From Bacteroidota bacterium (GTDB lineage Bacteria; Bacteroidota; Ignavibacteria; Kapaibacteriales; UBA961): a DNA stretch of 64,000 nucleotides. The position numbers and the translations under genes were made by a program. The stretch is taken from assembly GCA_020852855.1 (NCBI GenBank), contig JADZAA010000085.1, forward strand, positions 10,713 through 74,712, in the 5' to 3' direction. The notes under the pieces are model-generated. The model made no database searches and was not told the origin of the DNA. It was given only the letters and a program-made list of their open reading frames with translations. The first letter of the stretch is position 1; each line of letters starts with the position of its first letter. This document shows, one piece after another, positions 5,699-64,000 of the stretch.

Positions 5699-6390
5699 CA
5701 ATACTCCGTTGTTTATTCAAGCGGCTCGTGCGCCCAAATTATAGAGTTGGGCTATTTCCGGCTTCATTTTTTCGAGTTTCGGGTTTTTACCGTAAATCAA
5801 AATAATCCGGCCAAGGATTAACTTGTTGATATTTTTACTCTTTATGCTTGCGATTGAAAATGCCTTACGTTCATGTTTGTCAAGCGGCAACCAGCCTGTT
5901 ACTTTCGCAGTATTGAGTGCTGTAAGGGCTGTATTGTAGTGAAAATACATTGCAGATTTCTGCCGACTTTGGCAATGTTGCAGACCAATATGTTGCTTTG
6001 CATCACGGAATAAGAACTCAATCTGTGTTCGCAGTCGGTAGTAGTTCAGCAGACGTTCAGCCTCCATGTTGATGCCAATTGTTCTATAAGCAGGCCGTTA
6101 AATCTTGCAAAATCAAAATTCTTTGCAAATTGTTGTCTGTATGTTTGTTCGCCGTAATTGCCGTAGCGTGCAAAATCGGTAAAATTATATCGTGAATGTA
6201 TACTTAGCCGCAATATGAGTATATGCCTAAAAAATAATGAGTGCGGTTTGGAAATCCGCGACATTTATTGTAGTATTGCATATATTAACGGCTTCGGCTG
6301 TTTGCATCGGTAAGGGCAATTTTGTTGATGTGATTATCTTGCAAGATTAACCTTACCGTTTTTTTTCGACTAAATTTTAACGGAGTATTG
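5699..6390. mobile_element. Internally deleted IS4/IS5-like insertion sequence remnant bounded by 12-bp terminal inverted repeats
   Basis: CAATACTCCGTT at 5699-5710 and its exact reverse complement AACGGAGTATTG at 6379-6390. They flank a roughly 690 bp segment that encodes only transposase fragments. Confidence 0.5.
5717..6264 (-). pseudogene. DDE transposase fragments (C-terminal catalytic segment plus an out-of-frame upstream piece)
   Basis: 116-aa ORF with YYRLRTQIEFLFRDAKQHIGL, which matches the IS4-family motif (Y-x2-R-x3-E-x6-K) containing the catalytic E. The upstream 72-aa ORF is in a different frame. The total is far shorter than an intact transposase. Confidence 0.5.
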
Positions 6391-23981: not shown

Positions 23982-26279
23982 TCAGGGCTTAAATATAATA
24001 ACTTGGAATCCGCTTTGCACGGTTGCCGAGCCGAGATTAAATAATTTCACCATCAGCCGACTGTTCGATGCGGTTGAAGTAACCGGTATCAGCGGCGTAT
24101 TGGCATTTATCGGAGTTACTGCGCAAGTATATGCTGTTTCAGTGAAATTTTCGTTTTGTATGGTTATTAAATATGCGCCCAGCGAACCGTCCCAATTACA
24201 GGCAATATTCGGCGTTCCGGCCGTTATTGCTCCGTTTGCGGCAATTGTTGCGTAACCGATTGGCATGGCACGACGTTCGCCGTTTGGTACATTCGCGTAA
24301 GTTCTGGTTATATCGCCCGTTATATTTACTTTTCCTTGAAAATATCCGGCATACGACGATGCGGCTGTTTGTGTATTCGACCCGTAGATTGCAACTCCCG
24401 AATCGCTGGCTGATGTTGCCCAAACGCCGTAATTTCTTCCCGATGACGATGTTGCCTGTGCCGAAACGCCGATGCCGCTTGCACCGGCAGCCGTGCCTTG
24501 AACCCCGGACGCAGTTTCTTCGCCTTGTGCAAAACCGGCAACGCCTGTGCCTTCGGACGATATACCGTAAACGCCGTAACCTTTACCGGTATGCGAGCCA
24601 TATACGCCGCTGCCATTTGAATACAAGCCGTTATTTATGCCGCGAACGCCTGCCGAGCCTATACCGGGTACTGTATTTCTCACTACACCTTGTACGCCGC
24701 TTGCATCTTGTGCAGATGCAACTGTTTCGCCGTAAACACCTGCGAAACGCCCTGATGCGCCTGTATGATAGCCTGCAATTCCCATACTGTCGCGACTAAA
24801 ACCGCGAACACCTACGCCTGCCGCCGCACTACCCATAACGCCCGTTCCGTGTCCGTTGTGAAGTCCCCAAACTCCTGCTCCATTAGTTAAAGTATCGTTG
24901 TGTATTCCTTTTATTCCGGCTGAGTTGATACCGCCCGTTTTTGATACAATTTCTCCGACTATTCCTGCCGCCGTATCGCCTATCGATGCACTTGCTCCAT
25001 AAATCCCGGGAAAAATTCCCGTTGCCGATGAATGAATGCCCAAAATACCGATACTGTCGCGGCTAAGTCCTTTAACTCCTATACCTTGCAGTGTGCTACC
25101 CATAACTCCGACTCCGCGGCCGGCATGGCGCCCCCACACTCCGAAGCCTCTTGCACCGGTCGAATTAATTGCTCCTGAAACTCCGCTGGCAGATGCTCCG
25201 GGTAAAGTGGCAGTGGCAATTCCCGTTACGCCTGCAATTGAATCGGCAGTAGATGCAACGCGGCCGATTATGCCGTTTGATTTAGCCGTCGCACTTACCG
25301 CATTACCTTCGATTGCATAGCCTGAACCGGCCGCTTCGGCTTTTATGGCCGGTGCCGAACTATTGATGTTCGAAACGTTAAAAGTTGCTGCAATGCCCGT
25401 TCCCGTTGCGTTGGCAGCAAAAGCCGCACCGAGCCCGTTGTTTTCGGCAATCAGCGCGGGCGAATTGTTGGCGGCAAAATTAACCGCAAACTTTGCCGAA
25501 CTTCCATTGTTTACGTTTGTTATTGTAAGTGCAGGCTGTCCGCTTACATCTCCTTCGCCGGAATACGGCAGTACAAAAGGTACGGCTGTAGGTGTTTTCC
25601 ATTGCAAGCGGCCCGCCGGAGGAACTCCGATATAAGTCAGTACATCGCCGTCTTTGGGTGCGCCCTTTGCCGAAAACTGCTCGTAAGTAAGTGTTCCGGG
25701 AGCAATATATTCGCGTGTAATGGCATTTGTGGATAAGCGCACGGTTACATCGCCCGTGCCGCCGTAAGGCTCTACGAGAATAGGCCCTTCGCCGCTGATT
25801 TTTGTAACGACGCTTTTCCATTCCACACCGTTTTTGGTTGTTACCATTGCTTGATTTTCCGACTGTGCCGAGCGGCGGCTTATTTTTGCCGGAGTTACGG
25901 AGCTGTCGGCTATTGCAAGGGCATAAGGCGCAGCCGCCAACTGAATTCGCGGCGTAAATTCATCTGAACCCATAGAAACTCCCAACCAATATGGGCGGTC
26001 GAAATCCATATCAAGCGGTATTCCGCCGGATACGGTAGAGCCGAGATATACATTAAAAAGGCCTTTTTGAACTTCTGTGTTTACAGATTCTTGAAATACA
26101 AGAGTTCCTCCTGTCGGCGCGGTGTATAATCTCAACGTAAGATTAAACGAGCCGTTAACGGGTTTTGTGGGGTCGCCTTCGAGTATTCCCTGAACGGAAA
26201 TAATGCGCGGCGTTTGAGCCGAAGCGTTGTCCACGCACAACAGCACGAACAATACACATAATATTAAAAAGTATTTCAC
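23982..26279 (-). CDS. Secreted glycine-rich tandem-repeat surface protein (unclassified family)
   Basis: Probable GTG start at 26279 preceded by AGAGG. Signal peptide MKYFLILCVLFVLLCVDNASAQ. A roughly 300-aa N-terminal domain is followed by about 330 aa of G(V/I)xG-type repeats with a roughly 88-aa higher-order period, then a 110-aa C-terminal domain. Confidence 0.6.
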   Translation of the reverse strand: MKYFLILCVLFVLLCVDNASAQTPRIISVQGILEGDPTKPVNGSFNLTLRLYTAPTGGTLVFQESVNTEVQKGLFNVYLGSTVSGGIPLDMDFDRPYWLGVSMGSDEFTPRIQLAAAPYALAIADSSVTPAKISRRSAQSENQAMVTTKNGVEWKSVVTKISGEGPILVEPYGGTGDVTVRLSTNAITREYIAPGTLTYEQFSAKGAPKDGDVLTYIGVPPAGRLQWKTPTAVPFVLPYSGEGDVSGQPALTITNVNNGSSAKFAVNFAANNSPALIAENNGLGAAFAANATGTGIAATFNVSNINSSAPAIKAEAAGSGYAIEGNAVSATAKSNGIIGRVASTADSIAGVTGIATATLPGASASGVSGAINSTGARGFGVWGRHAGRGVGVMGSTLQGIGVKGLSRDSIGILGIHSSATGIFPGIYGASASIGDTAAGIVGEIVSKTGGINSAGIKGIHNDTLTNGAGVWGLHNGHGTGVMGSAAAGVGVRGFSRDSMGIAGYHTGASGRFAGVYGETVASAQDASGVQGVVRNTVPGIGSAGVRGINNGLYSNGSGVYGSHTGKGYGVYGISSEGTGVAGFAQGEETASGVQGTAAGASGIGVSAQATSSSGRNYGVWATSASDSGVAIYGSNTQTAASSYAGYFQGKVNITGDITRTYANVPNGERRAMPIGYATIAANGAITAGTPNIACNWDGSLGAYLITIQNENFTETAYTCAVTPINANTPLIPVTSTASNSRLMVKLFNLGSATVQSGFQVIIFKP

Positions 26280-26567
26280 GGTTTTGCCTCTAAAATATGG
26301 ATATCGACGAATTTTTACCGGCAAAATTACAAAATTACTGCCAAGCATTGGCGCAGGACAAACGGTTTATTGTATTCAGGCTATAAATATTAAGCATCGA
26401 AAATAGTTTGTGCCGATTTTAGTTTTCGGCATAGATACGACAATTTTCCTACATTTCCTGTATTGGCAATTAAAATTACGATTATTTGCCGCTTCGCCGA
26501 TTATTCGTATTTTGCCCGCAAAAGTCAGACAGCCCAAGTTTCCAAAACAAATCAAGGAAGTACGGTT

Positions 26568-31355: not shown

Positions 31356-32291
31356 TTATCTCATAAGTTGCAGGAATATTTGCGGGCTTTGATTCGCTTG
31401 TGCAAGCGACGTAACCGAGGTTTGCTGCAAGAATTGTGCTTTTACAAGTTCGAGCTGTTCAAGAGCCACGTCTGCGTCCTCAAGGCGCGATATTGCGGCG
31501 CGATAATTCGTTATCTGTGATTTAAGTGCTTCTTCCTGCGAAGACAAGCGGTTTACCATACCGCCTAAGTACGATGCCACTTTATTTACATTATTAAGAG
31601 CCATGGACAGGCTGGTTAATGTAAGCGATATAGTGCTATTGCTGAAGAGCTGTAAGTTAGCAGGCGTAACCGAGTCGAGAGAATTTAGATTCAGTCCGGT
31701 TACTCCGGCAAAATTAGTGTTGCTTGTAACGTTTACATTGAACACGCCGTCGACATTGAAGTTTGCCTGGCTGGCACTTGTGGTCAGATCAACTGCTAAA
31801 GTAAGCAATGAGTTGGCCGCGTCGTAGCCTATAACGAAATCACCAGAAAACCCGCCGGCTATAAGCTGGCGACCGCCGAATACAGTCGAGTCGACCACTG
31901 TTTGGATTTGTTGGGCAAGCCGATAAGCAGCTTTGGAAAGAGCGATTTTTTCGTCAGTTCCAAGCGCACCCGACGATGCTGTGGCGGCTGCATCTTTTAT
32001 GCTTGTCAATAAATTATTTATATTGTCATAGCCGTCTTGAGCGATATTGGCAACGTTGGAAGCATCGCCCACGGCCATTAATGCCGAGCGCAAAGCTCCG
32101 TTGCGCGCACCTAAAGCGCGTGATGTAATATAGCCGGAAACGTCGTCGGCTGCCGAATTTATACGCTTACCGGTAGAAAGTCGCAATTGGCGTAAAGCAA
32201 TATTATTGCTCGAAGCCTGCAACGCATTGTAGGCGTTTTCCGCGGGCGTATTCGTCCGAATCCGCGCTCCGCCCGATACTGCACTTGGCAT
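31356..32291 (-). CDS. fliC: Flagellin
   Basis: N-terminal RIRTNT...LSTGKRINSAADDVSGYITSR (flagellin N domain). C-terminal RLEDADVALEQLELVKAQFLQQTSVTSLAQANQSPQ (flagellin C domain). 311 aa. Confidence 0.85.
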   Translation of the reverse strand: MPSAVSGGARIRTNTPAENAYNALQASSNNIALRQLRLSTGKRINSAADDVSGYITSRALGARNGALRSALMAVGDASNVANIAQDGYDNINNLLTSIKDAAATASSGALGTDEKIALSKAAYRLAQQIQTVVDSTVFGGRQLIAGGFSGDFVIGYDAANSLLTLAVDLTTSASQANFNVDGVFNVNVTSNTNFAGVTGLNLNSLDSVTPANLQLFSNSTISLTLTSLSMALNNVNKVASYLGGMVNRLSSQEEALKSQITNYRAAISRLEDADVALEQLELVKAQFLQQTSVTSLAQANQSPQIFLQLMR

Positions 32292-40994: not shown

Positions 40995-41774
40995 TTATTG
41001 CAACGCTATACGCTTGCGTGCGAATCGCTCTTTTCCTATACGAACTTCCGAAACATAGTCGCCGGGCGGCATTCGGCGGCCGGCATCGTCTCGGCCATTC
41101 CAAGTTATGCGGTATTTGCCGGGTGCTTGCCGTCCGTCGAATATTGTCGCAATAACCTTTGCCTGCGGCGAATAAACGACTATTTGCACTTCGGTTGCAT
41201 AGTCTATGACGTATTGCATAACGGGTGAAACATCTTCTTCAAGCCCAAGAAACGCCGCTATTGACGAAAGAGAGATTTGCACACCCGGATTAGGGTTTTT
41301 ATACGGTGATAAATTCGGCACATATTGCGATTGTGCGATATTATACGCGCTCATTACGCGCTCTCGTCCGCTCGGCAGAAAATATTCGGGCGGTAAGTCC
41401 AGTGATTTCATTGCTGTTTGCCAAGGCATTTTTTCTGTGTTTTTTTGCTCGGCCTCCCAATGTTGCGCAAACATTTTTGCATGAATCTGCGCAAGCGTTC
41501 CGGGCGGAATGCCCAATCTCATAATACGGGCAAACGCGCTGTCTTGTTCGGGCGTAAAAGCATATTCTTTCGAGCCGGGCGCAGAAATAATTTCTACTTT
41601 CGAGGCAGAATCAACGCCGAGAGTGTCGCCCGTAAGAATTTGCGTCGGCGTGAATTGGCGTGAACGCAACAGAAGCGAGCGCGTTGCGGCCGAATCGCCA
41701 GGGGCGGCTGACACGACCAAGCCGAAAACTGCGAGTAAAAAGACTGTAAATGTAAGAAGAAAGCGAAGCGTCAT
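40995..41774 (-). CDS. Secreted protein with a T9SS/FlgD-Ig-like C-terminal sorting domain
   Basis: Signal peptide. C-terminus NPNPGVQISL...VIATIFDGRQAPGKYRITWNGRDDAGRRMPPGDYVSEVRIGK matches the Por-secretion-tail pattern (YPNPFNP...IYDxxGRxV...WxGxDxxGxxVxSGVY). Confidence 0.55.
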   Translation of the reverse strand: MTLRFLLTFTVFLLAVFGLVVSAAPGDSAATRSLLLRSRQFTPTQILTGDTLGVDSASKVEIISAPGSKEYAFTPEQDSAFARIMRLGIPPGTLAQIHAKMFAQHWEAEQKNTEKMPWQTAMKSLDLPPEYFLPSGRERVMSAYNIAQSQYVPNLSPYKNPNPGVQISLSSIAAFLGLEEDVSPVMQYVIDYATEVQIVVYSPQAKVIATIFDGRQAPGKYRITWNGRDDAGRRMPPGDYVSEVRIGKERFARKRIALQ

Positions 41775-41929: not shown

Positions 41930-43606
41930 TCAGTTTCCGCCGCGCAAGCCTTTTTGTTCGTCGTCCGAAAGTAAGTCTAAGAATGTAACGGAAGCGTTGC
42001 CGTCGCTTTGAAAAGCGGAGTCGGTTCTTTCGCGTTCATTGCGGTGGGAGCGATTATCGCGCCGCTGCGGGCGGTTCTCTCGTGCAGCGGCTTCGGCTGC
42101 CAATTCAGCTTCGTCGTATTTCGGTGCTAAGATAAGCGAGAAATTCTCAGGATTGACATCAACAACCATTACCTCGAGCGTTTCTCCGGCCGCATAGTTT
42201 TTCGCTTTGCCGCCGATGTTGCGTATTTTGCTGCGCGGAATAAATCCGTCGAAATCATCATTGACGCTTACTATAAGCCCGTTTGCGGAAGTTTGGCGAA
42301 CTATTGCCTGCATCGTCGAGCCAACGGGCAGAGTTTCAGCCGCATTGTCCCAAGGATTCGGCTTGGTTTGTTTTAGTCCGAGTGCTATTCGCTTATTCTC
42401 GGCGGATGATGAAATGACCAATGCTTCTATTTCTTGGCCTACGGACAACATTTCCGAAGGATGCTGTACGCGCCGTCCCCATGAAATCTCGGAATTGCGC
42501 AACAGTCCTTCTATGCCGGGGCGCAATCCGATATACGCACCGAAATCGGCCAAACGGCGCACAACGCCTTTGGTGCGCGTTCCGGCGGGGAAATCCTGCT
42601 CAACGCGGATCCAAGGAGATTCTTCGAGTTCACGACGACTTAAAGATATTCGCTCGGAGTTTTTATCCATCGAAAGTACTTTTGCTTTTACAAGGTCACC
42701 TTTCTTTACGATTTGCGACGGGTCATCAATGCGCGCATTCGACAGCCGCGAAATATGTATCAATCCTTCTACGCCGTTCAGGTCGACAAATACGCCGAAC
42801 GATGCAATAGAAACAATCTTGCCCTCGACTATATCGCCTTCTTTGATTGAGCCGAAGAAGTCGGATGTCAGTAATTTGCGACGAGAAACAACGACAGTTT
42901 TGCGCCCTTGCTCATCTTGTTGTATTTCATTGATATGCGCGGTAACTATTTGGCCTATCGCGCTTTGCATTTCTGCTTCCGTCGGTGCGCGTTTTAGTGA
43001 AAAATGCGATGCCGGCAGGAACAGACGTAAGTCTTTGTATTGCGCCCGCAAGCCTCCCTTTATGCGCTCAAGTATCGTAACCTCAATGGTTCCGCCTTCG
43101 GAATGAATTTTTTCAAGCTCGGCGAATAAACCGTCAAGCATTTCCTTGTGCTGACGACGGCGCTCCGCTTCTGCCGCTTTTTCAGCTGCTTTTGCGGCGG
43201 CCTTTTCGGCTGCACGGCGGTCGGCTTCTGCTTGCTCCTCCGGCGTAAGAGCCGGCTTTGTTTTAGCCTCAGCCTTAGGTTCGGCAGCAGCTTCGGCGGC
43301 CGGTTCGGCAGTAGCCTCGGCGGCCGGTTCGGCAGTAGCTTCGGCGGCCGGTTCGGCAGTAGCTTCGGCGGCCGGTTCGGCAGTAGCCTCGGCGGCCGGT
43401 TCGGCAGTAGCCTCGGCGGCCGGTTCGGCAGCAGCCTCGGCGGCCGGTTCGGCAGTAGCCTCGGCGGTTACGGTTGCCACGATTTCACCCGAAGAGGTTG
43501 CTTCCGGAGATTCGGTTGTGATAATAATTTCTGCGGAAATATCCGTAGATACTACGCTTCCCTCATCGGGATTTTGAATGGATTCTTGCTCGGTCATACG
43601 ATACAA
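41930..43606 (-). CDS. S1 RNA-binding domain protein (ribosomal protein S1-like, four S1 domains) with an N-terminal AEATAEPA repeat tract
   Basis: Repeated GxV/IxGxV S1-fold motifs (EGDIVEGKIVSIASFGVFVDL; TRTKGVVRRLADFGAYIGL; etc.). N-terminus has 8-aa tandem repeats. Basic C-terminal tail. Confidence 0.7.
   Translation of the reverse strand: MYRMTEQESIQNPDEGSVVSTDISAEIIITTESPEATSSGEIVATVTAEATAEPAAEAAAEPAAEATAEPAAEATAEPAAEATAEPAAEATAEPAAEATAEPAAEAAAEPKAEAKTKPALTPEEQAEADRRAAEKAAAKAAEKAAEAERRRQHKEMLDGLFAELEKIHSEGGTIEVTILERIKGGLRAQYKDLRLFLPASHFSLKRAPTEAEMQSAIGQIVTAHINEIQQDEQGRKTVVVSRRKLLTSDFFGSIKEGDIVEGKIVSIASFGVFVDLNGVEGLIHISRLSNARIDDPSQIVKKGDLVKAKVLSMDKNSERISLSRRELEESPWIRVEQDFPAGTRTKGVVRRLADFGAYIGLRPGIEGLLRNSEISWGRRVQHPSEMLSVGQEIEALVISSSAENKRIALGLKQTKPNPWDNAAETLPVGSTMQAIVRQTSANGLIVSVNDDFDGFIPRSKIRNIGGKAKNYAAGETLEVMVVDVNPENFSLILAPKYDEAELAAEAAARENRPQRRDNRSHRNERERTDSAFQSDGNASVTFLDLLSDDEQKGLRGGN
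43283..43468 (-). repeat. 24-nt tandem repeat (about 7 copies) encoding (A)AEATAEP in the S1-domain gene
   Basis: Near-perfect iterations of ggcggccggttcggcagtagcctc are visible in the sequence. Confidence 0.85.
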
Positions 43607-43875
43607 AAGACAAAAAATTGAAGAAAGGCGCGTGCCGCCTTATGGTTAATCATCGTCGTCGGCGCGGTTAAACGCTTGACAAACGGCAAATTTAATAAAA
43701 AAAGCGTCTTGTTTGCATGAGATTTTTACGGGAAAGCATTTTTTTTTCAAAAAAACAACATAAGCCGCTGCTTTTTCTCTGATTTTTGATAAATTCTTGC
43801 CGTAGAAACATTAAATTTTCGTAAGTTTTAGGAATTTTATTCGACGAAAGTTCTTCACGGTTAAGGAGAATGGAT

Positions 43876-46800
43876 ATGCGCGGCGGGCTTATTGCGGCAA
43901 TTCTGCTGTTCTGTTGTTTTTGTATTGTTCAAGGACAATCAATATCGAATAAAGGTCGAGATTTTTTATTGACTTTTCCGCCTAATTATCATAATAATTA
44001 CAATTCGCCGACTCTTCGTTTGCGCGACAGTTTGCAAATCTATATCGTAGCCGAAGGGCAAACTTTTTGCTCGATTTTTTATCGCGACCGCAACGGAAGA
44101 TTATTCACCGATACATTTTCCATTGCAAAAGCAGGCGATATTTATACGTTTAGAGTTCCCGCCGTCGGCTTTGAGCTTGAAGGCTTTAATCAAAGCGGAG
44201 CATTGACGGATAACAATCAGAACGAGGTTACGGCACCGCAGTCTTTTCGCATTACCGCAGACGGCGACATTACGGTATTTGCCCTCAGCCAAGCCGAAAC
44301 AACCAGCGACGCGGCTATGATTCTTCCTTTACCTGCTCTCGGCTTGCGATATATTGCCGTATGCTATAACAGCGACGGAAAACTCGATTATCAATATAAC
44401 CTTACCGGACAAAGCACGCCGTCGCAATTCGCCGTAGTTGCTTCCGAAGACAATACGCATATTACGATACGGCCGTCGGCCGCCACGCAGCACTCGGGTA
44501 CTGCAACGCAAAATATTGTTTTGCAGCGCGGCGACGCATATTTGGTTCAGGCTTGGATTGCTCCCGATAATATACGCGCAGATCTTACGGGAACGGAAAT
44601 TACGGCCGATAAGCCTGTTGCGGTGTTCGGCAGTCAGCAACGCGCCACTCTTCCGATTGAAAGTGCATCGAACCTATATTCCCGGGATATGTTGTTCGAG
44701 CAAATTCCGCCTGTCGAATCATGGGGAAAACTGCATATTGTCAGCCCGTTTGCGCAGGCGACAAATCAGACTGCAATAGGTTCCGATATTTTCAGAGTAA
44801 TTGCCGCTTACGATAATACCGCAATTTTTGTTAACGGTGTAAAATCGGCCGTTCTCAATAAAGGTCAAAAATTTGATGCACCGTTAAATGCTCCGGGCGT
44901 GATCAGTACAACGCAACCAACGCTTGTGGCCGAATACAAAAAATCAGCCGGCGATGCGACAAATTCATCTCGTATGGGCGACCCGTTTATGATAATAGTT
45001 CCGCCGCGAGAGCAGTATCTTTCCGCTTATCGCTGCATAAATATTCAGGCGCATTTTCCGCTTAACGGAACAAGCAAGCCGGATACGGCGGTATATTCCG
45101 AGCATTATATTTCAATTGTAATTCCCAAGCGAGCGGTAAACTCACTGCAAATAGACGGAAAGCCAGCCGATATTTCTAAATTACAGCGTGTTCCAACCTC
45201 TTATTCGGCAGGACTTTGCACGGAGATGCTTGCCGGCTGGACGCAAGTTGACGCGGGAGCGCATACAGTAACTGCGGACGAGCCTTTTGCTCTGATGATT
45301 TACGGCTACGGACTTGCCAACAGCTATGGCTATACCGGCGGAATTTCACTTAATAAAAACGCTGATGTTAAGCCTATAAAAGCACTGGGTGCAACTCGCA
45401 TTTGCAGTGGTGACACTGCACAACTTGGCGTAACAGGCGGTATAGGTGGTTATACCTGGCAACCTTCTGCTTCGCTTTCTTGTTCGGATTGTTCCAATCC
45501 CGTAGCACGTCCGGCAAAAACAACTACTTATCGCGTTACGTCGTTCGATGCCGGCGATTGTCCGCTGGTGGACAGCGTAACTGTTGTTGTATCTTTCGTA
45601 TCGGCAAGCGTATCGCCGGATACGACAATTTGCCCGGAAGGTATGGTGCGACTGAAAGTAACGGGCGATAAATTAACTTGTAAATGGTCGCCGGCCGCTT
45701 CACTGTCATGCTCGGATTGTCCGAATCCGACTGCGAAACCCGAAGAAACAACCAAGTATTTCGTAACAATAACAAATAGCGACGGCTGCTCAACAACCGA
45801 TTCTGTTCTGGTAAATGTAAGCGTGCCGTTTGCCGATGCCGGGCGCGACACTGCAATATGCAAAGACGGCTCTGTGCGTTTAAATGCAAACAACGGCGAT
45901 ACTTACTATTGGTTTCCGGCTTCGGGGCTGTCTTGCGTGAATTGTCCGAACCCGGTTGCCACACCTGATGCACCGACCAAATACTTTGTAACTATAACAA
46001 ATAATGCAGGTTGCTCGGCTACCGATTCGGTTTTTGTTGATGTCATAGTTCCGTTAGCCGATGCGGGGCGCGACACAATAATATGCAAAGGCGATTCTGT
46101 TCGCCTGAATGCAAGCGGCGGCGGCGAATATACATGGTTCCCGCCGGTAGGTCTTTCTTGCACAGACTGTCCTAATCCAATTGCTTCTCCCTTAGAAACC
46201 ACAACTTATACGGTTATTGTAATTAGTGACTTTGGTTGCATGGCGCAAGATTCGGTAATCGTAGAGGTCAATAATACGCGCTCAAGGGCTGATTTCACTG
46301 CCCGAATATGTGCGGGAAATTCCGTGTCGCTTTCGGCAAGTGCAGGTAAATCATATAGTTGGTCGCCGCCCGAAGGACTTTCTTGCGCGGATTGTTCCAA
46401 TCCCGTAGCAACGCCGAATCATACAACAACATACACCGTAGAGATTGACAACGGTTCGGGCTGTAAGGCGATTGAGAATACTCGCGTAGTCGTGCGGGAA
46501 TGTTTATCCGAAACCGTAAATTTCGGACGGGTTTTGTCTTGCGATAATCCGGTACAAATCATATATTTTGTAAATCGTGAAGATACTGCGGTGCTGTTTT
46601 TCGGTTTGCGTCCGCTTGATACATCGTTCGTGAATTTCAGACTTGACTATTATGCGCCGCTTCCGATAAAATTAAATCCCGGCGATTCTACGGCTGTCAA
46701 AGTTGTATTTTTGGCTATAGGCGACGCAGATATTACCGCTCGCTATCGTTTTATATCGTCTTATGACACATTACGCGAATGTACTGTAAACGGAACAAGT

Positions 46801-47532
46801 TATACAGTACCGGCGGACTTTTTGCTTGAGTTGCCGAATGGTTCGGTTTCTCCCGGCGAAGAAGTTACAGTTGCCGTGCGTGGCGAGTCGCAGCATTGGA
46901 AACAGGCAGAAATTACCGAACTTCATGCGGAAATAACTTGGAAAAAAGAACATTTTATATTTAATCCAAAGAGTGTAACACTTGGCTTGCAAATGCCGCG
47001 TGATTGGATAATAACTTATGAAAGTGTTGATTTGGGCGATTCGGTAAAATTGATTTTCGATTGCAGCGGTGTTACTCCGATTTTGCTTGACGGCGATATT
47101 TTCCGCTTTCCGGTTCTGGTTATGCTTGGCGGAAAAGAGTATCCGGGAATGGATTTACGCATAAACTTGAATCGGCGCAAAAAATGTGTAATTGCTTCTG
47201 CGGCGAGCGATTCTTTGCAAATATTTTCCTGTGCTTTGCCGTTTCGCTATGTGAAAGGCTACGGAAAATCATATTTTCTGCGGGTTGCGCCTATGCCCGC
47301 TACCGACGGCGAAGCGATAAAAGTGGAATATGGAGTCGGAATTGCATCAAACTCATTGGTAGAGATTTTTTCGGTTACGGGTAAAATGGTTGCAACTCTT
47401 GCTTCCGGCAGTCATGCGGCGGGGGAATACAGCGTCGAAATTCCGCCCGAATTTCTTCCGTCGGGTACATATTATTGCCGCTTGCTATCCGGCGAATTTA
47501 TCGGTATTGCACCGATAATAATAGCCGAATAA
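43876..47532 (+). CDS. Large cell-surface protein of about 1218 aa (from the ATG at 43876): N-terminal IgGFc-binding-like domain, six Cys-containing tandem repeats, T9SS C-terminal sorting domain
   Basis: AAGGAG ribosome-binding site 7 nt before the ATG at 43876. Signal peptide. N-terminal KGRDFLLTFPPNY... resembles the IgGFc_binding N-terminal domain. Six roughly 75-aa repeats of the form ICxGDSVxLxAxGGxxYxWxPxxGLSCxDCxNPxAxPxxTTxYxV...GC...DSVxVxV. The C-terminal LVEIFSVTGKMVATL...GEYSVEIP...LPSGTYYCRL matches a Por secretion tail. Confidence 0.75.
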   Translation: MRGGLIAAILLFCCFCIVQGQSISNKGRDFLLTFPPNYHNNYNSPTLRLRDSLQIYIVAEGQTFCSIFYRDRNGRLFTDTFSIAKAGDIYTFRVPAVGFELEGFNQSGALTDNNQNEVTAPQSFRITADGDITVFALSQAETTSDAAMILPLPALGLRYIAVCYNSDGKLDYQYNLTGQSTPSQFAVVASEDNTHITIRPSAATQHSGTATQNIVLQRGDAYLVQAWIAPDNIRADLTGTEITADKPVAVFGSQQRATLPIESASNLYSRDMLFEQIPPVESWGKLHIVSPFAQATNQTAIGSDIFRVIAAYDNTAIFVNGVKSAVLNKGQKFDAPLNAPGVISTTQPTLVAEYKKSAGDATNSSRMGDPFMIIVPPREQYLSAYRCINIQAHFPLNGTSKPDTAVYSEHYISIVIPKRAVNSLQIDGKPADISKLQRVPTSYSAGLCTEMLAGWTQVDAGAHTVTADEPFALMIYGYGLANSYGYTGGISLNKNADVKPIKALGATRICSGDTAQLGVTGGIGGYTWQPSASLSCSDCSNPVARPAKTTTYRVTSFDAGDCPLVDSVTVVVSFVSASVSPDTTICPEGMVRLKVTGDKLTCKWSPAASLSCSDCPNPTAKPEETTKYFVTITNSDGCSTTDSVLVNVSVPFADAGRDTAICKDGSVRLNANNGDTYYWFPASGLSCVNCPNPVATPDAPTKYFVTITNNAGCSATDSVFVDVIVPLADAGRDTIICKGDSVRLNASGGGEYTWFPPVGLSCTDCPNPIASPLETTTYTVIVISDFGCMAQDSVIVEVNNTRSRADFTARICAGNSVSLSASAGKSYSWSPPEGLSCADCSNPVATPNHTTTYTVEIDNGSGCKAIENTRVVVRECLSETVNFGRVLSCDNPVQIIYFVNREDTAVLFFGLRPLDTSFVNFRLDYYAPLPIKLNPGDSTAVKVVFLAIGDADITARYRFISSYDTLRECTVNGTSYTVPADFLLELPNGSVSPGEEVTVAVRGESQHWKQAEITELHAEITWKKEHFIFNPKSVTLGLQMPRDWIITYESVDLGDSVKLIFDCSGVTPILLDGDIFRFPVLVMLGGKEYPGMDLRINLNRRKKCVIASAASDSLQIFSCALPFRYVKGYGKSYFLRVAPMPATDGEAIKVEYGVGIASNSLVEIFSVTGKMVATLASGSHAAGEYSVEIPPEFLPSGTYYCRLLSGEFIGIAPIIIAE

Positions 47533-47574
47533 GCGCGTACAGCAGATTTGCTTTGCTCGCCCTGCAAAAAAAAC

Positions 47575-47606
47575 TTTGGCAAAGTCGTAGGTTTAACGTA
47601 ATTTCG
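47575..47606 (+). promoter_or_regulatory. Candidate Bacteroidetes/FCB-type promoter (-33 TTTG ... -7 TAATTTCG) for the tRNA pair
   Basis: TTTG at 47575-47578 and TAATTTCG at 47599-47606 with a 20-nt spacer, about 16 nt upstream of tRNA-Ser. Matches the TTG-N(17-23)-TAnnTTTG consensus known for Bacteroidetes sigma-A (sigAB). Confidence 0.3.
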
Positions 47607-47622
47607 CAGTCCTTTTTCAACC

Positions 47623-47709
47623 GGAGAGGTGCGAGAGTGGTTGAATCGGGCGGTCTCGAAAACCGTTATAGGAGTAATCCTATCGAGGGTTCGAATCCCT
47701 CCCTCTCCG
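47623..47709 (+). tRNA. tRNA-Ser (anticodon CGA)
   Basis: Acceptor GGAGAGG/CCTCTCC with G discriminator. Anticodon stem GCGGT/ACCGT with loop CUCGAAA. Long variable arm. T-arm GAGGG-TTCGAAT-CCCTC. No encoded CCA. Confidence 0.85.
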
Positions 47710-47736
47710 CAACGGGACGTGAAAACGTCCCTTATA

Positions 47737-47819
47737 GCCCGGATGGCGGAATTGGCAGACGCGCTATATTCAGGGTGTAGTGAGGGAATCCTCGTGCAGG
47801 TTCAAGTCCTGTTCCGGGC
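47737..47819 (+). tRNA. tRNA-Leu (anticodon CAG)
   Basis: Acceptor GCCCGGA/TCCGGGC with A discriminator. Anticodon loop UUCAGGG. Long variable arm. T-loop GGTTCAAGTCC. Confidence 0.8.
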
Positions 47820-47830
47820 ACTCTAAATTA

Positions 47831-47874
47831 AAAAAGCCTATCTATTGATTAGCAATAGATAGGCTTTTTTAATT
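47831..47874. terminator. Bidirectional intrinsic terminator
   Basis: aaaaaaGCCTATCTATTG-atta-GCAATAGATAGGCtttttt: a 13-bp near-perfect stem with A-run and T-run flanks. It closes the tRNA transcript (+) and the convergent 47908-48342 gene (-). Confidence 0.75.
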
Positions 47875-47907
47875 TTCGGAATAAAATATTTTGATAATTT
47901 GGGCTAT

Positions 47908-48342
47908 CTATTTAGGCTGTGCATTTTGTCCGTCTATTTGCGAGTTAAGCTGCCGTGTTTGGTCTTCGATTTGTTTTGTCAATTCAGCCAATTGCTCGTC
48001 TAATTGCTTTTGCATTTGTCGCGTCTGTTCGTCAATATTTTTTGCCTGCTCATCTAATTGCTTACTTATTGAAGCGAGATTATCCGAGATTTGTTTCAAT
48101 TGCTCTTTATATTGCTTGACAAGATTAAGATTCTGGTCGTGAAAATTCTTAACGATTTGCCCCATTTGCTGATGGGAATTTTTCGTAAGTTTTTTGGATT
48201 GTTCTTCCAAAATTTTCACAAGCTGACGTTTTACATCATCGGATTTTCCTACTGTTGCGGTTTGTGCAGGCTTATCTTGTGCAGAAGCCGGTAAATAAGC
48301 AATAAACAGAATTATCGAGACAATTGTGATGAAGTATTTCAT
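47908..48342 (-). CDS. Secreted Gln/Lys-rich coiled-coil protein (hypothetical)
   Basis: Signal peptide MKYFITIVSIILFIAYLPASAQ followed by heptad-like repeats (KQLDEQ.., EQ..Q). No recognisable catalytic motif. Confidence 0.45.
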   Translation of the reverse strand: MKYFITIVSIILFIAYLPASAQDKPAQTATVGKSDDVKRQLVKILEEQSKKLTKNSHQQMGQIVKNFHDQNLNLVKQYKEQLKQISDNLASISKQLDEQAKNIDEQTRQMQKQLDEQLAELTKQIEDQTRQLNSQIDGQNAQPK

Positions 48343-54752: not shown

Positions 54753-56186
54753 CTAATTCATGGATTTGGACATTTCGACCAACGATTCTATTTGGTCGTT
54801 AAGTGAATTGACGGATTCGGCTATGTTTTCCGTAACCTCCGCGCTTTCGCGGCCGGAAATCATCAATGCGCCGATTCTGTCGGAAATTTCGCTTGATGCA
54901 TAGGTTTGCTCTTCAGATGCGGCTGCTATATGCGTTGTTATACGTTCAACTTCTTGTACACTTTTAAAAATATTCGAGAACTCGCGCTCCGCACGTTCAG
55001 CCTGATACAAGCCTTTCTCTACAGCCTGTAAACTGTCGCGCGTAGCTTGAACGCTGTTTTGGGCATTTATATTGATTTGCTTGATAATTACGGCTATATC
55101 CGCTGTAGTTTGCTGTGTTTTTTCGGCTAATTTCCGCACCTCGTCCGCCACTACCGCAAATCCGCGCCCGTATTCGCCGGCACGTGCCGCCTCGATGGCA
55201 GCGTTCAAAGCGAGTAAATTTGTTTGGTCGGCTATTTCGTAAATCATTCGCGCCGATTCGGCTATTCTTTGTGACGCACTTTCAAATTCTCCTATGATTT
55301 TGGCTGTATTACGAGTCAATTCTACTATTTCTTGTATGGAAGCGCGTGTTTGCACAGCAATGGTGTTGCCGGCTCCGGCTGCACGTGCCGTATCCTGCAC
55401 CAAGTTTGCTATATTTTGTAAATTCTCGGAGTTGGATGCGCTTGTTTGATGCAACTCTTTGGTCGAATGGGTGATGCTCGTCAAATTATTCGACTGCTCC
55501 GCTACGGTGGACGACATTTCTTCTACGGCGGTTGCTATAGCTGCCGAAGAAGAAGCCACATTGCGTGAAGTATGTTCAATTTGATGAAGCAGGTTCTCTA
55601 TCGTAGTCGTAGAATTTATGATAGACTCTATTGCCTGATTTACATGAGTGCCGGCAACGCCAAATTCGCCCCGCAAACCGTTCGTAAGAGCATGGCGAAA
55701 ATATTTTTTCTTTTCCGCATAGGATACAGCCGTCTGAATCTCGCGCGACATCGCTTCTATTTGGTCTAAAATATCGTTAACCAACCAAGCGGTTTTATAG
55801 AACAAACCCGACTCCGGCGTATTAACCAAACGATTCTCGAACGACCCTTGCGAGGCTTCCGTCGCAAGTTCTTCAATCGAACGCAATATCCGTAATTCGC
55901 TTTCGGGAATATTTGATTGACGGCGTTTCCGAACGAAATTTGCCGTCGAATTGAATCTGCGTTGCGCAAGTGCGTAAAAAGCCTCGCTTTTTACGATAAA
56001 GTCCGCTGCAAACGAAACAACGAATATCGTGGCACAAAGTGCAATAAACAAGGCAGCGTCGTGCACCCAAAAGAACAAGGAGCACAGCCCGGCCAAAGCT
56101 AATAACAAAGGTATCTTGCGAAAAAATGATTTCGCAAAATCAGAGAGTATTGATGAATTCTTCATAGTTTGCTCCGTGCTGCGCAA
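54753..56186 (-). CDS. Methyl-accepting chemotaxis protein lacking a sensor domain (two N-terminal TM helices, then a cytoplasmic signalling domain)
   Basis: Highly conserved MCP signalling hairpin [38 protein letters not shown]. Methylation-helix repeats. N-terminal hydrophobic hairpin with no periplasmic domain. The start may instead be the second ATG at 56165. Confidence 0.9.
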
Positions 56187-56661
56187 GAAAGTTTAACAAA
56201 TAATCCATAGAGGCTTGTGCGCCTTGTTTTCGATTGGGGTATTGTCGCTCCACTTCAAGCATCGTAGCGTAAATTTTTTCGACTTCGCGCAATGCCGAGC
56301 GTTTTGGCATACGGCGTACTGAATAGTAGCCGACAATTTTACTATTAGTGTCGAACGACGGAGTTACATTAGCCAAAATCCAATAGAACGAACCGTCTTT
56401 GCTGGAGTTTTTGATGTATCCAAAGAACTCGTTACCGACGCTGATTACCGACCAAAGCAACTTAAAAACGCCGCCCGGCATATCGCTGTGCCGGATAATA
56501 TTATGATTTTTTCCGACCAATTCCTGCTCTGTATAGCCGGTTATTTCAATAAAAGGTTGATTCGCATATTTAATAATTCCCTTTAGGTCGGTCTTGGAAA
56601 CTAAAAAATCCTGCTCGCGTACCATTCGTTCGGATTGTGCCGACAGCGCGATTGCTTTCAT
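56140..56661 (-). CDS. Stand-alone Aer-type (FAD-binding) PAS domain protein, copy 1
   Basis: [50 protein letters not shown] closely parallels the E. coli Aer PAS core (TDLxGxITxANDAFVxxSGYxxxELxGQPHNxVRHPDMPxAAFADMW). Its 3' end overlaps the MCP start by 26-47 nt. Confidence 0.8.
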
Positions 56662-56820
56662 CAGTACAAGTTGTAAATTGAAAAATATGGCGACCTTAGG
56701 TGCCGCCATTTATGGCGCAAACTTTATAAAAATACGACGCAAAAACGACGTATAACACATAAAAGGAAAAAACCAAGATAAGTCTTTGCCATTATAGCTA
56801 CGTCTTCTATTTTTCAAGTG

Positions 56821-57342
56821 TTAAAGGGCAATTACAAATTCATCATAGCTTGCTCCGTGTTGCGCAAGAAAGTTTAACAAATAATCCATAGACGCTTGCG
56901 CACCTTGTTTTCTATTGGGGTATTGCCGCTCCACTTCAAGCATCGTAGCGTAAATTTTTTCGACTTCGCGCAATGCCGAGCGTTTTGGCATACGGCGCAC
57001 GGAATAGTAACCGATAATTTTACCGTTAGCGTCGAACGACGGCGTTATATTGGCAAAAACCCAGTAGAACGGACCGTCTTTGCTGGAGTTTTTGACATAA
57101 GCAAAAATTTCGTCGCCGCCGGCGACCACTTCCCAAAGCAACTTAAAAACGCCGCCCGGCATATCGCTGTGCCGGATAATATTATGATTTTTTCCGACCA
57201 ATTCCCGCTCCGTATAGCCGGTTATTTCAATAAAGGGTTGATTCGCATATTTAATAATTCCCTTTAAGTCGGTCTTGGATACTAAAAAATCTTGCTCGCG
57301 TACCATTCGCTCGGATTGCGCCGACAGCGCGATTGATTTCAT
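56821..57342 (-). CDS. Stand-alone Aer-type (FAD-binding) PAS domain protein, copy 2 (tandem paralog)
   Basis: Same length (173 aa) as copy 1. Roughly 90% identical to it at protein and nucleotide level, by manual comparison of the two listed ORFs. The listed ORF start at 57624 is trimmed to the ATG at 57342. Confidence 0.8.
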   Translation of the reverse strand: MKSIALSAQSERMVREQDFLVSKTDLKGIIKYANQPFIEITGYTERELVGKNHNIIRHSDMPGGVFKLLWEVVAGGDEIFAYVKNSSKDGPFYWVFANITPSFDANGKIIGYYSVRRMPKRSALREVEKIYATMLEVERQYPNRKQGAQASMDYLLNFLAQHGASYDEFVIAL

Positions 57343-57676
57343 CTTTAAAATGTTGAGATTTGTAAGAAATAGGACGAGCTTAAAGCCGCCCTTATTTGCG
57401 GAGAATCTGCAAAAATACAACAAAAAACGAGGTGTAACACGCTGTTTTACTCTTGCATAATGCGTTTTATGCAGGGAATGGAGGTCTTTGTAGTTCAATG
57501 CCGAGGGCGGGAAATATCGAGAGTGCAAAAATAATCGTAACGCCGTAAGTGTATCGCGTATTATGCAAGGGTTGCACCAAAAAGAGCAGATAAAATACAG
57601 CAGTGCAACAGGCACTTCATACAAGCAACGGAAGGATTTGATTTTTATGTTTTATCACGCATGGAACGATGTGTTT

Positions 57677-58624
57677 CTACCGTTTCATTTTCCATTTTAC
57701 AGTCTGCCCATGACGAGGCGTTTTTACTTGCGAGGCAACGGGAATGTTTCCTACGATAGAAAGTGTTTCTCTCTTTTTTCTCGAAAAAGACGGATTCTTC
57801 AAAAATAAAGTCAATAAAGCGGCTAAAAGAATAAAAAACATGGATACTTCGAGCCAATATTGCAAAGGATGTATCCATATTTCCTCAAATGTTCCCCAGC
57901 GGCCAAGCACTTCTATAAAATTCCAGAAAATAATAACTGTGGGTATGGCGTATCGAACTGCATAATCGAAAGTTTGGATTTTCACCAGGTGCGCGATCAG
58001 ATAAAGCGACCAAATCAATGAACCCCAAGCAACAATATGCGTAGCCGGATGATTGTCGCCTGCAATGTTATTGTCGTACACGACCAGCAACAAGATATAG
58101 AAAAACCAAATAATTACAATCGTTTCGCTAAACGAGGCCAAGGAAACAGGTTTCTTGAATCCGGTTTGATCCAATATATCTTTTCTCAGCCCGAATGCTT
58201 TTTGCAACCAAATAAAAAGCGAGCAATTAGTTCGGGTAAATAAATAGATGAGAGTTATCGTAGCCAGTAATCCTATTGACGATAACATAACTAAATATTC
58301 GGGCTTTGTGGCTATTTCTCCGTGCTCCATAAGCGGCGCCACATTATATCTTTCGGCCGCCCAAACAAATGAAAATTCAATCCAGCCTGTCCAAACCAAT
58401 ATACCGCCAAGCAAGCCCATAATGGTGGCAAATGTAGGCTGTTCGTTCTTTTTCACTCCCCAAATAAGTAAAGCTACGCCTGCAACTCCCATCAAGGCCG
58501 CACCTATAAGCTTATATTCTACCAGCAGTTTTTCGTTCAATACCATTATGGCATGGCCTATCGGCATGAGCAAAAGTACTAATAGAAAAGAGAAAAAGCC
58601 GTTCTTTAACCCGTTTATATTCAT
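57677..58624 (-). CDS. Polytopic membrane protein, function unknown
   Basis: About 8 predicted TM helices. No motif I recognise. Codon usage is consistent with its neighbours. Confidence 0.45.
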   Translation of the reverse strand: MNINGLKNGFFSFLLVLLLMPIGHAIMVLNEKLLVEYKLIGAALMGVAGVALLIWGVKKNEQPTFATIMGLLGGILVWTGWIEFSFVWAAERYNVAPLMEHGEIATKPEYLVMLSSIGLLATITLIYLFTRTNCSLFIWLQKAFGLRKDILDQTGFKKPVSLASFSETIVIIWFFYILLLVVYDNNIAGDNHPATHIVAWGSLIWSLYLIAHLVKIQTFDYAVRYAIPTVIIFWNFIEVLGRWGTFEEIWIHPLQYWLEVSMFFILLAALLTLFLKNPSFSRKKRETLSIVGNIPVASQVKTPRHGQTVKWKMKR

Positions 58625-63158: not shown

Positions 63159-64000
63159 TCAGTCAAGCATTACTACTGTTCCGAATTGCCGTTTGCCGCC
63201 GAGATTTACCGAGACAATATACACACCGGCCGGAAGTTCGGAAAAATCAAATGTTTCCGAATTGTCGTTTGTTTCTATGCGTCTTCTGGCTACTACTGCG
63301 CCGAGCAATGACGATAAAGTAATTTCACCTGAAATTTGTAATTGTGACGCGGCCGATACGCGAAGTTTCTTATCTGCAAGCGAAGTAATTATTTCTTCGA
63401 CAGTAGTGTTTTCATTTGCCGATTGTGCCGATTCATCAAGCAGGTAAAATCCGCGCTCTGTTGCCATATAAACGAGTTCGTCGTTTTCACCTGCAAATTT
63501 TATCATCCAAGCATTACGGCGGATACTGTCAGGCCAAGGTATATTTTGGCCGGCATCTATCCATGTTGTACCTCCGTCGGTGGTATGTTTCACAATGCCG
63601 TAGCCCGGCACCCGTAACGGTGCGCCGTAGTCTTCGGTGTAGCCTCCGGCAAAAACGTCGTCCTCTCCGTTGCGGACACGTGCTGCTACAGTCCAAAAGC
63701 TGGTATCGGCAAATCCTATGCGTTCCCAAGAATATCCGCCGTCTTTCGTGCGAAATATGCCGCCGTTAGGTCTGTTAAGATAATAGAAGTAAGTTATGGC
63801 AGCGTAACCCACAAGCGGATCACGTTTGCTGAAAACTATTTGCGAAACTTCCGAATCATCGGCACTAATCGGCAACTGATTTGCGAATTTCCATGTTTTT
63901 CCCGAGTCCGCCGATATTTTAATGGCACCGCCTATCATACCGGCCACTATTATATTGGAGCTGTCGCGACGAATAGCCAATGTGCATAGATTCTCGTCGA
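63159..64000 (-). CDS. BNR/sialidase-like beta-propeller protein with a T9SS C-terminal sorting domain (5' end lies beyond the window)
   Basis: BNR-like motifs (S.DSGKTW, TKDGGYSW, TDGGTTW). C-terminal ETFDFSELPAGVYIVSVNLGGKRQFGTVVMLD matches the Por secretion tail. The reading frame continues past position 64000. Confidence 0.55.
   Translation of the reverse strand, partial: DENLCTLAIRRDSSNIIVAGMIGGAIKISADSGKTWKFANQLPISADDSEVSQIVFSKRDPLVGYAAITYFYYLNRPNGGIFRTKDGGYSWERIGFADTSFWTVAARVRNGEDDVFAGGYTEDYGAPLRVPGYGIVKHTTDGGTTWIDAGQNIPWPDSIRRNAWMIKFAGENDELVYMATERGFYLLDESAQSANENTTVEEIITSLADKKLRVSAASQLQISGEITLSSLLGAVVARRRIETNDNSETFDFSELPAGVYIVSVNLGGKRQFGTVVMLD

Follow-up and report, generated by a model that had tools for sequence, protein, structure and literature searches.

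Domain anatomy of a predicted FCGBP_N-headed type IX secretion cargo with five Ig_7 repeats from an Ignavibacteria-type genome

[quoted passage not shown] We find it to be an unremarkable representative of a known class, namely FCGBP_N-headed cargo of the T9SS type, because all its main domains are represented in Pfam or NCBIfam and an identical protein has already been deposited with the same labels. Our favoured model, which we regard as likely if well short of certain, is that the protein is exported by Sec and handled as type-A T9SS cargo, with an FCGBP_N head on an immunoglobulin (Ig)-like stalk displayed at the surface (or released). In this model the stalk would comprise seven Ig-like beads, i.e., five Ig_7 repeats with four Cys each, one ASH/HYDIN-type Ig domain, and one beta-sandwich of ~145 residues closed by an invariant Cys pair. 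The protein is probably a cell-surface protein, and its role may be that of an adhesin.

The 1218-residue gene is real, and both the ORF and its standing as the largest gene in the window were predicted correctly (the second longest ORF, DnaE, has 1151 residues).

43876-47532, forward strand: coding sequence of 1218 residues, with an identical protein in NCBI

Depending on the ATG, the ORF begins at 43870 or 43876 and encodes 1220 or 1218 residues (residue numbers throughout follow the 1220-residue frame that begins at ATG 43870). A Shine-Dalgarno (SD) sequence, AAGGAG at 43863-43868, lies 7 nt before ATG 43876 and only 1 nt before ATG 43870, and the 89%-identical ortholog P0001 likewise begins with MRG; thus, the start at 43876 is preferred. 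The ratio of nonsynonymous to synonymous substitution rates (dN/dS) between the target gene and the 89% ortholog is 0.19, indicating purifying selection. Identical proteins are present in NCBI under three different names: GAB1429545.1 (hypothetical protein [Ignavibacteria bacterium]), MCC6846201.1 (T9SS type A sorting domain-containing protein), and MCZ2133405.1 (IgGFc-binding protein); the contig of the identical protein, BAAFUJ010000023.1 of GCA_054685085.1, is 85,215 bp long. Named homologues that share this head come from Kapabacteria, Ignavibacteria, and Bacteroidota, and the full architecture was found in only ~11 clusters in a search of 5.8 billion proteins.

The N-terminal part of the protein consists of two features, both of which had been proposed and are confirmed here.

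43876-43935, forward strand: Sec signal peptide (…GLIAAILLFCCFCIVQG, followed by QS), with Gln predicted at +1 after cleavage
43936-45375, forward strand: head, FCGBP_N/IgGFc_binding domain, residues 23-502, one compact all-beta unit

The signal peptide is the sole hydrophobic stretch of the protein, with a core at residues 5-20, Val at -3 and Gly at -1, followed by Q23. Gln was found at the corresponding position in all 13 orthologues and homologues that were read, and the predicted +1 Gln agrees with the previously described Q-rule (Gln at +1), which is reported to be high in Ignavibacterium album (PMC5837995). A lipoprotein was also considered and rejected, since no acceptable lipobox, as judged by eye, is present near Cys15, Cys16, or Cys18.

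Within the head, Pfam IgGFc_binding (PF17517) matches residues 147-479 over its complete length (profile positions 1-297 of 297) with 207.9 bits against a gathering threshold of 25.6 (E 2.7e-61). An AlphaFold2 model of residues 23-502, based on an alignment of 97 sequences, shows one compact all-beta domain with a predicted local distance difference test score (pLDDT) of 94.6 and a predicted template modelling score (pTM) of 0.94, in which the part matching PF17517 and the preceding 124 residues form a single unit. No PDB structure matches the head as a whole domain, and a sequence search of PDB with the whole protein yielded no match at E<=1. Among solved folds, parts of the head resemble only beta-sandwiches of the TM1070/ASRT and CBM types, which is why a glycan or polymer is our best guess for its ligand. 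An Asp-Pro pair in the head (MGDPFMIIVPP, window ~44980-45010), of which D349/P350 in the numbering of the 23-502 fragment are invariant or nearly so among 97 head domains, is reminiscent of the acid-labile GDPH motif in the vWD domains of FCGBP.

The same domain raises the possibility that the protein is T9SS cargo released to the medium, either as a soluble binding protein or as an enzyme with an unrecognised catalytic head, and not an anchored adhesin. Two acidic residues in the head, D216 and D349, are invariant and two others, D251 and E255, nearly so (again in fragment numbering), and the head, which has no solved structural counterpart, might be catalytic. In addition, cargo with a type-A C-terminal domain (CTD) is described as either anchored or released (PMC10202324). 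However, Pfam and NCBIfam scans matched no enzyme family to the head, the folds it partly resembles are beta-sandwiches of binding type, and displayed proteins typically have a long Ig-like stalk of this kind, set between the head and a sorting signal close to the membrane. Considering both sides, we find release unlikely, although it deserves more weight than any of the other alternatives below, and we retain the displayed head as the favoured model.

Downstream of the head, five Cys-bearing repeats with a period of 75-76 residues form the first part of the stalk.

45376-45603, forward strand: Ig_7 repeat 1, residues 503-578, four Cys
45604-45831, forward strand: Ig_7 repeat 2, residues 579-654, four Cys and an extra C604
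45832-46056, forward strand: Ig_7 repeat 3, residues 655-729, four Cys
46057-46281, forward strand: Ig_7 repeat 4, residues 730-804, four Cys, included in the C-terminal model
46282-46500, forward strand: Ig_7 repeat 5, residues 805-877, four Cys, included in the C-terminal model

In these repeats the first Cys (C1) is located at residues 512, 588, 664, 739, and 814, a CxxCxNP motif containing the second and third (C2 and C3) at 538, 614, 689, 764, and 839, and the fourth (C4) at 564, 640, 715, 790, and 865. Pfam Ig_7 (PF19081, Ig-like domain CHU_C associated) scores 76.3 bits against a threshold of 27.3 and matches in five stretches (E 5.6e-19 to 2.4e-21 in all), so the repeats, as sequence matches, are far beyond chance (E 2.4e-21). 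The naming of the family as SprB/CHU_C-type was therefore right for its CHU_C-associated half and unsupported for the other, since SprB repeats (PF13573) gave no match in the target protein at E<=1. When the five copies were made into a hidden Markov model (HMM), it detected those five in the target protein and no others, one fewer than had been counted. The segment probably taken for a sixth repeat begins at residue 878 ('CLSETVNFGRVLSCDNP'); residues 878-952 align with the five repeats over a partial overlap with only 22-30% identity, and the whole segment (residues 878 to ~979) belongs to another type of domain, which is described below. When searched against 1.84 billion proteins, the five-repeat profile detects 62,799 representative proteins, of which some contain over 60 repeats, and it finds no sequence match among PDB chains, including those of GhpA.

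Pairwise identity among the five repeats is 37-56% at the amino acid level and 44-63% at the nucleotide level, and Tandem Repeats Finder (TRF) detected no DNA-level tandem array in 45376-46500, which bears out the suggestion that no recent expansion occurred. On the other hand, orthologues carry three, four, five, or seven copies of the repeat, implying that the length of the array has not been fixed in evolution and giving no support to the stable array that had been proposed. Taken together, these comparisons indicate an array that is of old date, as judged from its DNA, and evolutionarily variable in length. We also observed that the O-glycosylation sequon of Bacteroidota, D[ST][AILMTV], occurs 16 times in the target protein (43870-47529) compared with 4.9 ± 2.2 times in shuffled sequences. 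About 10 of the 16 sequons lie in the Ig_7 array, mostly as D-T-x before C1 and D-S-V after C4, and they may be no more than a component of the consensus that the repeats share; the Ig-like domains of GhpA have been reported to be O-glycosylated (bioRxiv 10.1101/2024.01.29.577165).

How the four Cys residues could be paired was examined by means of their co-occurrence. In 121 repeats of homologues, all four Cys are present in 61, only C1 and C4 in 41, and C2 without C3 in none. A larger set of 3,493 repeats, taken from the best 150 proteins of the profile search (unrelated representatives), contains C1 and C4 together 3,194 times, whereas C2 and C3 occur together in the same repeat 393 times and alone 13 times. 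Thirty-four of these 150 proteins mix repeats of two and four Cys, suggesting that the C2/C3 pair has been gained or lost many times. In the structural model of residues 730-1220, C2 and C3 are placed in a loop, and C1 and C4 at the ends of the first and the last long strands. The most economical reading would be a core C1–C4 disulfide with an optional local C2–C3 (CxxC) disulfide. Such co-occurrence supports the earlier notion of disulfide-stapled Ig-like units, and the four-Cys variant, as far as these repeats indicate, is not peculiar to the target protein.

The remaining C-terminal region contains two further Ig-like domains and a linker before the sorting domain.

46501-46806, forward strand: probable ASH/HYDIN-type ('choice-of-anchor D'-like) Ig domain, residues 878-979, the supposed sixth repeat
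46807-47241, forward strand: beta-sandwich domain of ~145 residues, residues 980-1124, weakly cohesin-like, ending with invariant Cys1106 and Cys1121
47242-47268, forward strand: low-confidence linker, residues 1125-1133, containing invariant Arg1126, candidate site of CTD removal
47269-47529, forward strand: type-A T9SS C-terminal sorting domain, residues 1134-1220, TIGR04183

Residues 730-1220 were modelled with a mean pLDDT of 88 and a pTM of 0.55, in line with a chain of separate beads; the model comprises two Ig_7 beads, the beta-sandwiches of residues 878-979 and 980-1124, a segment with pLDDT below 50, and a C-terminal domain of seven strands. A jackhmmer search with residues 878-1220 gave whole or partial matches in 88 of the set formed by 120 homologues and the query, and 21 examples of the C-terminal region were aligned for conservation and profile searches. 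Over residues 878-979, the profile of these 21 homologues gives matches to Hydin (E 3.9e-13) and to CEP192 (E 0.0012), 7-9 of the 21 match Pfam ASH, Cep192_D4, or HYDIN_VesB_CFA65-like_Ig individually, and this segment is thus probably an ASH/HYDIN-type Ig domain. The target protein alone shows only a sub-threshold match to TMEM131_like_N (E 0.036) here, and one homologue carrying the ASH-type domain bears the NCBI name 'choice-of-anchor D'. For residues 980-1124, about nine strands are predicted with AlphaFold2 pLDDT of ~90-96. Pfam Cohesin (PF00963) matches two of the 21 homologues (best E 0.0018) and not the target protein itself, so that 'cohesin-like' may serve as a weak lead. Cys1106, Cys1121, and Arg1126 (C377, C392, and R397 of the 730-1220 fragment) are invariant in the 21-sequence alignment. 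The ASH-type Ig domain, the ~145-residue beta domain, and the invariant Cys1106/Cys1121 pair had all been missed in the original prediction. In the linker, pLDDT falls below 50 at model positions 396-401 (residues 1125-1130), and we infer that the CTD could be cleaved off there.

Along the gene, the synonymous divergence (dS) from the 89% ortholog (window 43876-47529 against L005 433-4086) is highest in the head (0.49), lower in the Ig_7 array (0.24), and lowest (0.09-0.14) over the ASH domain, the middle part, and the CTD. This drop from head to CTD suggests a mosaic history of the target gene or recombination within it.

Whether the protein is actually handled by a T9SS depends on its C-terminal domain. 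TIGR04183 matches residues 1139-1209 with 24.3 bits against a cutoff of 23, while Pfam Por_Secre_tail (PF18962) remains sub-threshold on the target protein (17.5-18.5 bits against 27) and matches 20 of the 21 aligned homologues, with a best E-value of 7.2e-08. Seven strands are modelled at the extreme C-terminus (model positions 407-490, pLDDT ~85-93), which fits the published CTD fold, an Ig-like beta-sandwich of seven strands with a conserved Gly in the beta3-beta4 motif and conservation in its C-terminal strands (PMC11285876). G1185, G1199, and Y1201 are invariant in the 21-sequence alignment, and R1204 is nearly so. Together with the NCBI name of one identical protein, these data uphold the assignment of a type-A Por secretion tail. 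Pfam and NCBIfam scans of the target protein detected neither a type-B CTD nor CHU_C (PF13585/TIGR04131).

T9SS core genes were searched for in essentially all ORFs of at least 120 residues in the window and in precomputed Pfam labels over ~20 kb of contig flanks, and none (PorK/L/M/N, SprA/Sov, PorV, or PorU) was detected; a PorW/SprE match (E 0.0071) on a BamD-like protein was rejected as a TPR cross-match. At least three further CTD-bearing proteins (of Por_Secre_tail or FlgD_ig type) are encoded on the same 85-kb contig. As for individual neighbours with such C-termini, a 446-residue BNR/Sortilin protein cut by the window end has a T9SS-type CTD (TIGR04183 27.0 against a cutoff of 23), a 432-residue protein just outside the window has one as well, and a 259-residue protein with a FlgD_ig-type C-terminus is located two genes upstream of the target gene, a position that it keeps in the ortholog locus (coordinates given for these neighbours: window 63159-63980 and 40995-41774, both reverse strand, and L009 5827-8562).

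These data also bear on the alternative that the C-terminal domain is merely an Ig fold similar to FlgD_ig in an organism with no working T9SS, in which case the protein would stay in the periplasm or leave by another route. The marginal CTD scores, a competing FlgD_ig match at this domain (E 0.041), and the failure to detect T9SS core genes over ~85 kb of contig all speak for it, as does the literature, in which T9SSs outside Bacteroidota are described only as possible: they 'may also be present' in Ignavibacteriota according to PMC11285876, with BLAST evidence for this phylum cited in PMC5837995. Nevertheless, the Por_Secre_tail matches among homologues, the position of the seven-stranded domain at the very C-terminus with an invariant G…GxY typical of CTDs, and the presence of the same domain at the ends of several other contig proteins argue for a genuine sorting domain, and failing to detect ~10 machinery genes carries little weight when the genome spans several megabases and 85 kb of it were covered. 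We therefore judge a protein without T9SS export to be improbable, and type-A T9SS cargo remains the favoured identity.

On this basis, the following course of events can be proposed for the favoured model. The protein would leave the cytoplasm by Sec and would then fold and be oxidized in the periplasm, where each Ig_7 bead could gain its core C1–C4 and local C2–C3 (CxxC) disulfides. The T9SS would read the C-terminal domain and move the protein over the outer membrane. The sorting domain might be cut off in the linker or close to it, after which the protein could be attached to the surface like type-A cargo in Porphyromonas or, alternatively, be released in its processed form. Considering that the C-terminus would be the cell-proximal end, the conserved head would be placed at the tip of the stalk, where it may bind a ligand, with a glycan or polymer as our best guess. 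If each bead measures ~4 nm (an estimate, not a computed value), the stalk would be ~25-30 nm long.

Several points weigh against this model. The CTD score is barely above the NCBIfam cutoff and below that of Pfam, and no T9SS core gene was detected in the window or the contig flanks. The disulfide topology is a deduction from Cys co-occurrence and predicted secondary structure, as opposed to atomic coordinates or chemical evidence, and anchoring and release are not distinguishable from sequence. The proposal of a glycan or polymer ligand is a guess based on weak fold similarity of sub-domains. Finally, no member of the FCGBP_N family has a tested function, and IgG binding by the human domain itself is disputed (PMC11796319).

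Comparison with known FCGBP_N proteins places the target protein more precisely. FCGBP_N was previously reported in 564 bacterial proteins, of a kind described as secreted, nearly always N-terminal and together with PKD, CHU_C, or SprB domains, with no function assigned (Lang et al. 2016, PMC4948705). The target protein shares with them an N-terminal head after the signal peptide, Ig-like or PKD-type repeats, and a C-terminal sorting domain of Bacteroidota type. However, in most proteins of that set the head is accompanied by PKD, SprB, and a type-B CTD (CHU_C), in gliding Bacteroidota, whereas the target protein has five four-Cys Ig_7 repeats, an ASH-type Ig domain, a ~145-residue beta domain, and a type-A CTD, and belongs to a metagenome-assembled genome (MAG) of an uncultured, flagellated bacterium of Ignavibacteria type. 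Closer relatives are found among Kapabacteria/Ignavibacteria proteins named 'T9SS type A sorting domain-containing' or 'choice-of-anchor D' (for instance P0016, P0022, and P0101), whose heads are 36-46% identical to that of the target protein. The full C-terminal cassette (ASH-type Ig, Cys-pair beta domain, and CTD) also occurs in proteins of the P0085/P0095/P0101 type. In contrast to the target protein, these named Kapabacteria/Ignavibacteria proteins have no Ig_7 array, and ASH-type domains, two to five in number, make up their stalk.

The same survey also reported that FCGBP_N proteins are enriched in gliding bacteria, where the domain co-occurs with SprB and CHU_C domains (PMC4948705), and distant homologues of the target protein are named 'gliding motility-associated-like protein'. 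Both would fit a motility adhesin of the SprB/RemA kind that is moved along the surface by the gliding machinery. Against such a role, the protein lacks SprB repeats, a type-B CTD, and CHU_C; no PorP/SprF-like gene is adjacent (its neighbours being the S1 gene, the FlgD_ig-tailed protein, and tRNAs); its 1218 residues are far below the 6,497 of SprB; and the window carries flagellin and chemotaxis genes instead. A gliding adhesin thus seems extremely improbable. Specifically, the regions 31356-32291, 54753-56186, and 56140-57624, all on the reverse strand, encode flagellin ('lateral flagellin LafA' in one source), a methyl-accepting chemotaxis protein, and two PAS proteins, from which the host looks flagellated and chemotactic while carrying T9SS-type cargo.

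A second known system to be compared is GhpA of Aureispira (PDB 9flw, 9flv, and 9flp), a T9SS cargo with a distal functional module on a stem of disulfide-linked Ig-like domains (bioRxiv 10.1101/2024.01.29.577165). The best Foldseek matches to the model of residues 730-1220 are strings of Ig-like domains, and GhpA is among the top matches (E 1e-13 to 1e-15) with template modelling (TM) scores of only 0.2-0.36. GhpA itself has 5,898 residues and 52 repeats, forms a heptamer, and is anchored through homologues of PorP/PorE whose genes adjoin its own (bioRxiv 10.1101/2024.01.29.577165); it has no FCGBP_N head, and the repeats of the target protein show no sequence-level similarity to it. Genes for VipA, VipB, and Hcp of the type VI secretion system (T6SS) are present on the same contig just outside the window (L007 4843-7438, before the window start), together with genes for a PG_binding_1 protein and a 1155-residue BNR/Sortilin protein.

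Given the structural matches of GhpA fragments to the stalk, the nature of GhpA as disulfide-linked Ig-like T9SS cargo, and these T6SS genes, the target protein could be imagined as a 'catching' adhesin that holds neighbour or prey cells for a T6SS, as the GhpA grappling hooks do. However, any chain of Ig-like domains would match in this way, since Hydin, titin, and KIT score alike, and the repeats resemble no PDB chain in sequence. Moreover, the T6SS genes are ~45 kb away and unlinked in the ortholog locus, and the target protein is about five times shorter than GhpA. Such a catcher has, in our view, scarcely any chance of being correct. Its most explicit form, a miniature equivalent, in Ignavibacteria, of the grappling hook of Aureispira, in which the head would bind a structure on the surface of other cells, the CxxC beads would form a rigid disulfide-locked stem, and a T6SS would act as partner, is likewise a very long shot. 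The displayed head on an Ig-like stalk, with no commitment to a T6SS partner, therefore remains the favoured model.

The domain at the N-terminus of human FCGBP (FCGBP-N1) belongs to the same Pfam family and is likewise N-terminal in a secreted protein. In human FCGBP, a mucus protein, this head is followed by 13 vWD-C8-TIL units; IgG binding by the domain has been contradicted, and the domain is without an experimental structure because the mouse protein used for cryo-electron microscopy lacks FCGBP-N1 (PMC11796319). Nothing in the target protein suggests immunoglobulin binding.

We also examined the regions flanking the target gene.

43607-43875: divergent intergenic region between the S1 gene (reverse strand) and the target gene (forward strand), AT-rich, containing the SD sequence
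47623-47710, forward strand: tRNA-Ser (CGA), 90 bp past the target stop
47737-47821, forward strand: tRNA-Leu (CAG), same strand as the target gene
47825-47875: long, perfectly paired hairpin flanked by runs of A and T (RNAfold dG -28.4), the first intrinsic-terminator-like structure 3' of the target gene

The intergenic region had been proposed to act as an AT-rich 260-bp leader. It is indeed AT-rich (GC 0.357 in 43607-43869 compared with 0.458 in the window), but a transcribed leader found no support, since no sigma-70-like promoter on the forward strand, no exact Bacteroidota TAnnTTTG motif, and no Rfam family match were detected in the region 5' of the target gene. The tRNA-Ser/Leu pair was correctly placed directly downstream on the same strand. 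No terminator-like structure is present between the target stop and the tRNAs (47532-47623), and the hairpin at 47825-47875 could serve as terminator for the target gene and the tRNAs as well as for the convergent gene at 47908-48342. At the locus of a 58%-identical ortholog, the upstream neighbours are kept (TldD-like, FlgD_ig-tailed protein, and S1), and downstream there is another CTD protein and no tRNAs; thus, the adjacency of the tRNAs is not conserved, and a conserved link between the target gene and the tRNA pair was ruled out.

Some additional features of the window were recorded. The S1 gene (41930-43606, reverse strand) contains a 24-bp unit repeated 7.9 times with 96% match at 43278-43467, which encodes a low-complexity (AEATAEPA)n tract near the N-terminus of ribosomal protein S1. 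Just upstream of its annotated TTG start, a GC-rich hairpin with a T-run at 43625-43641 (reverse strand) could be a structure of the 5' untranslated region or a sign that the S1 start has been mis-set. Two ORFs on the reverse strand, one of 788 residues (23982-26348, GC 0.50) and one of 315 residues (57677-58624), have no Pfam or NCBIfam match. An ORF of 116 residues at 5717-6067 (reverse strand), situated within an otherwise gene-poor gap of 1.1 kb, is probably a transposase remnant, because the same gene in L007 is weakly labelled DDE_Tnp_1.

The target protein alone matters little. What its analysis adds is a corrected anatomy, with five repeats and two further Ig-like domains, and a statistical case for the disulfide topology of Ig_7, a family of which no member was found in PDB by sequence. 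It also yields a high-confidence model of the FCGBP_N head (480 residues), which is without an experimentally solved counterpart, and adds another case of T9SS-type cargo from a flagellated bacterium that does not belong to the classical Bacteroidota. In a milder version of the idea that the head binds other cells, the FCGBP_N head could be a glycan- or polymer-binding module. If so, a tractable bacterial member of the family could reveal the function of the N-terminal domain of the human mucus protein FCGBP.

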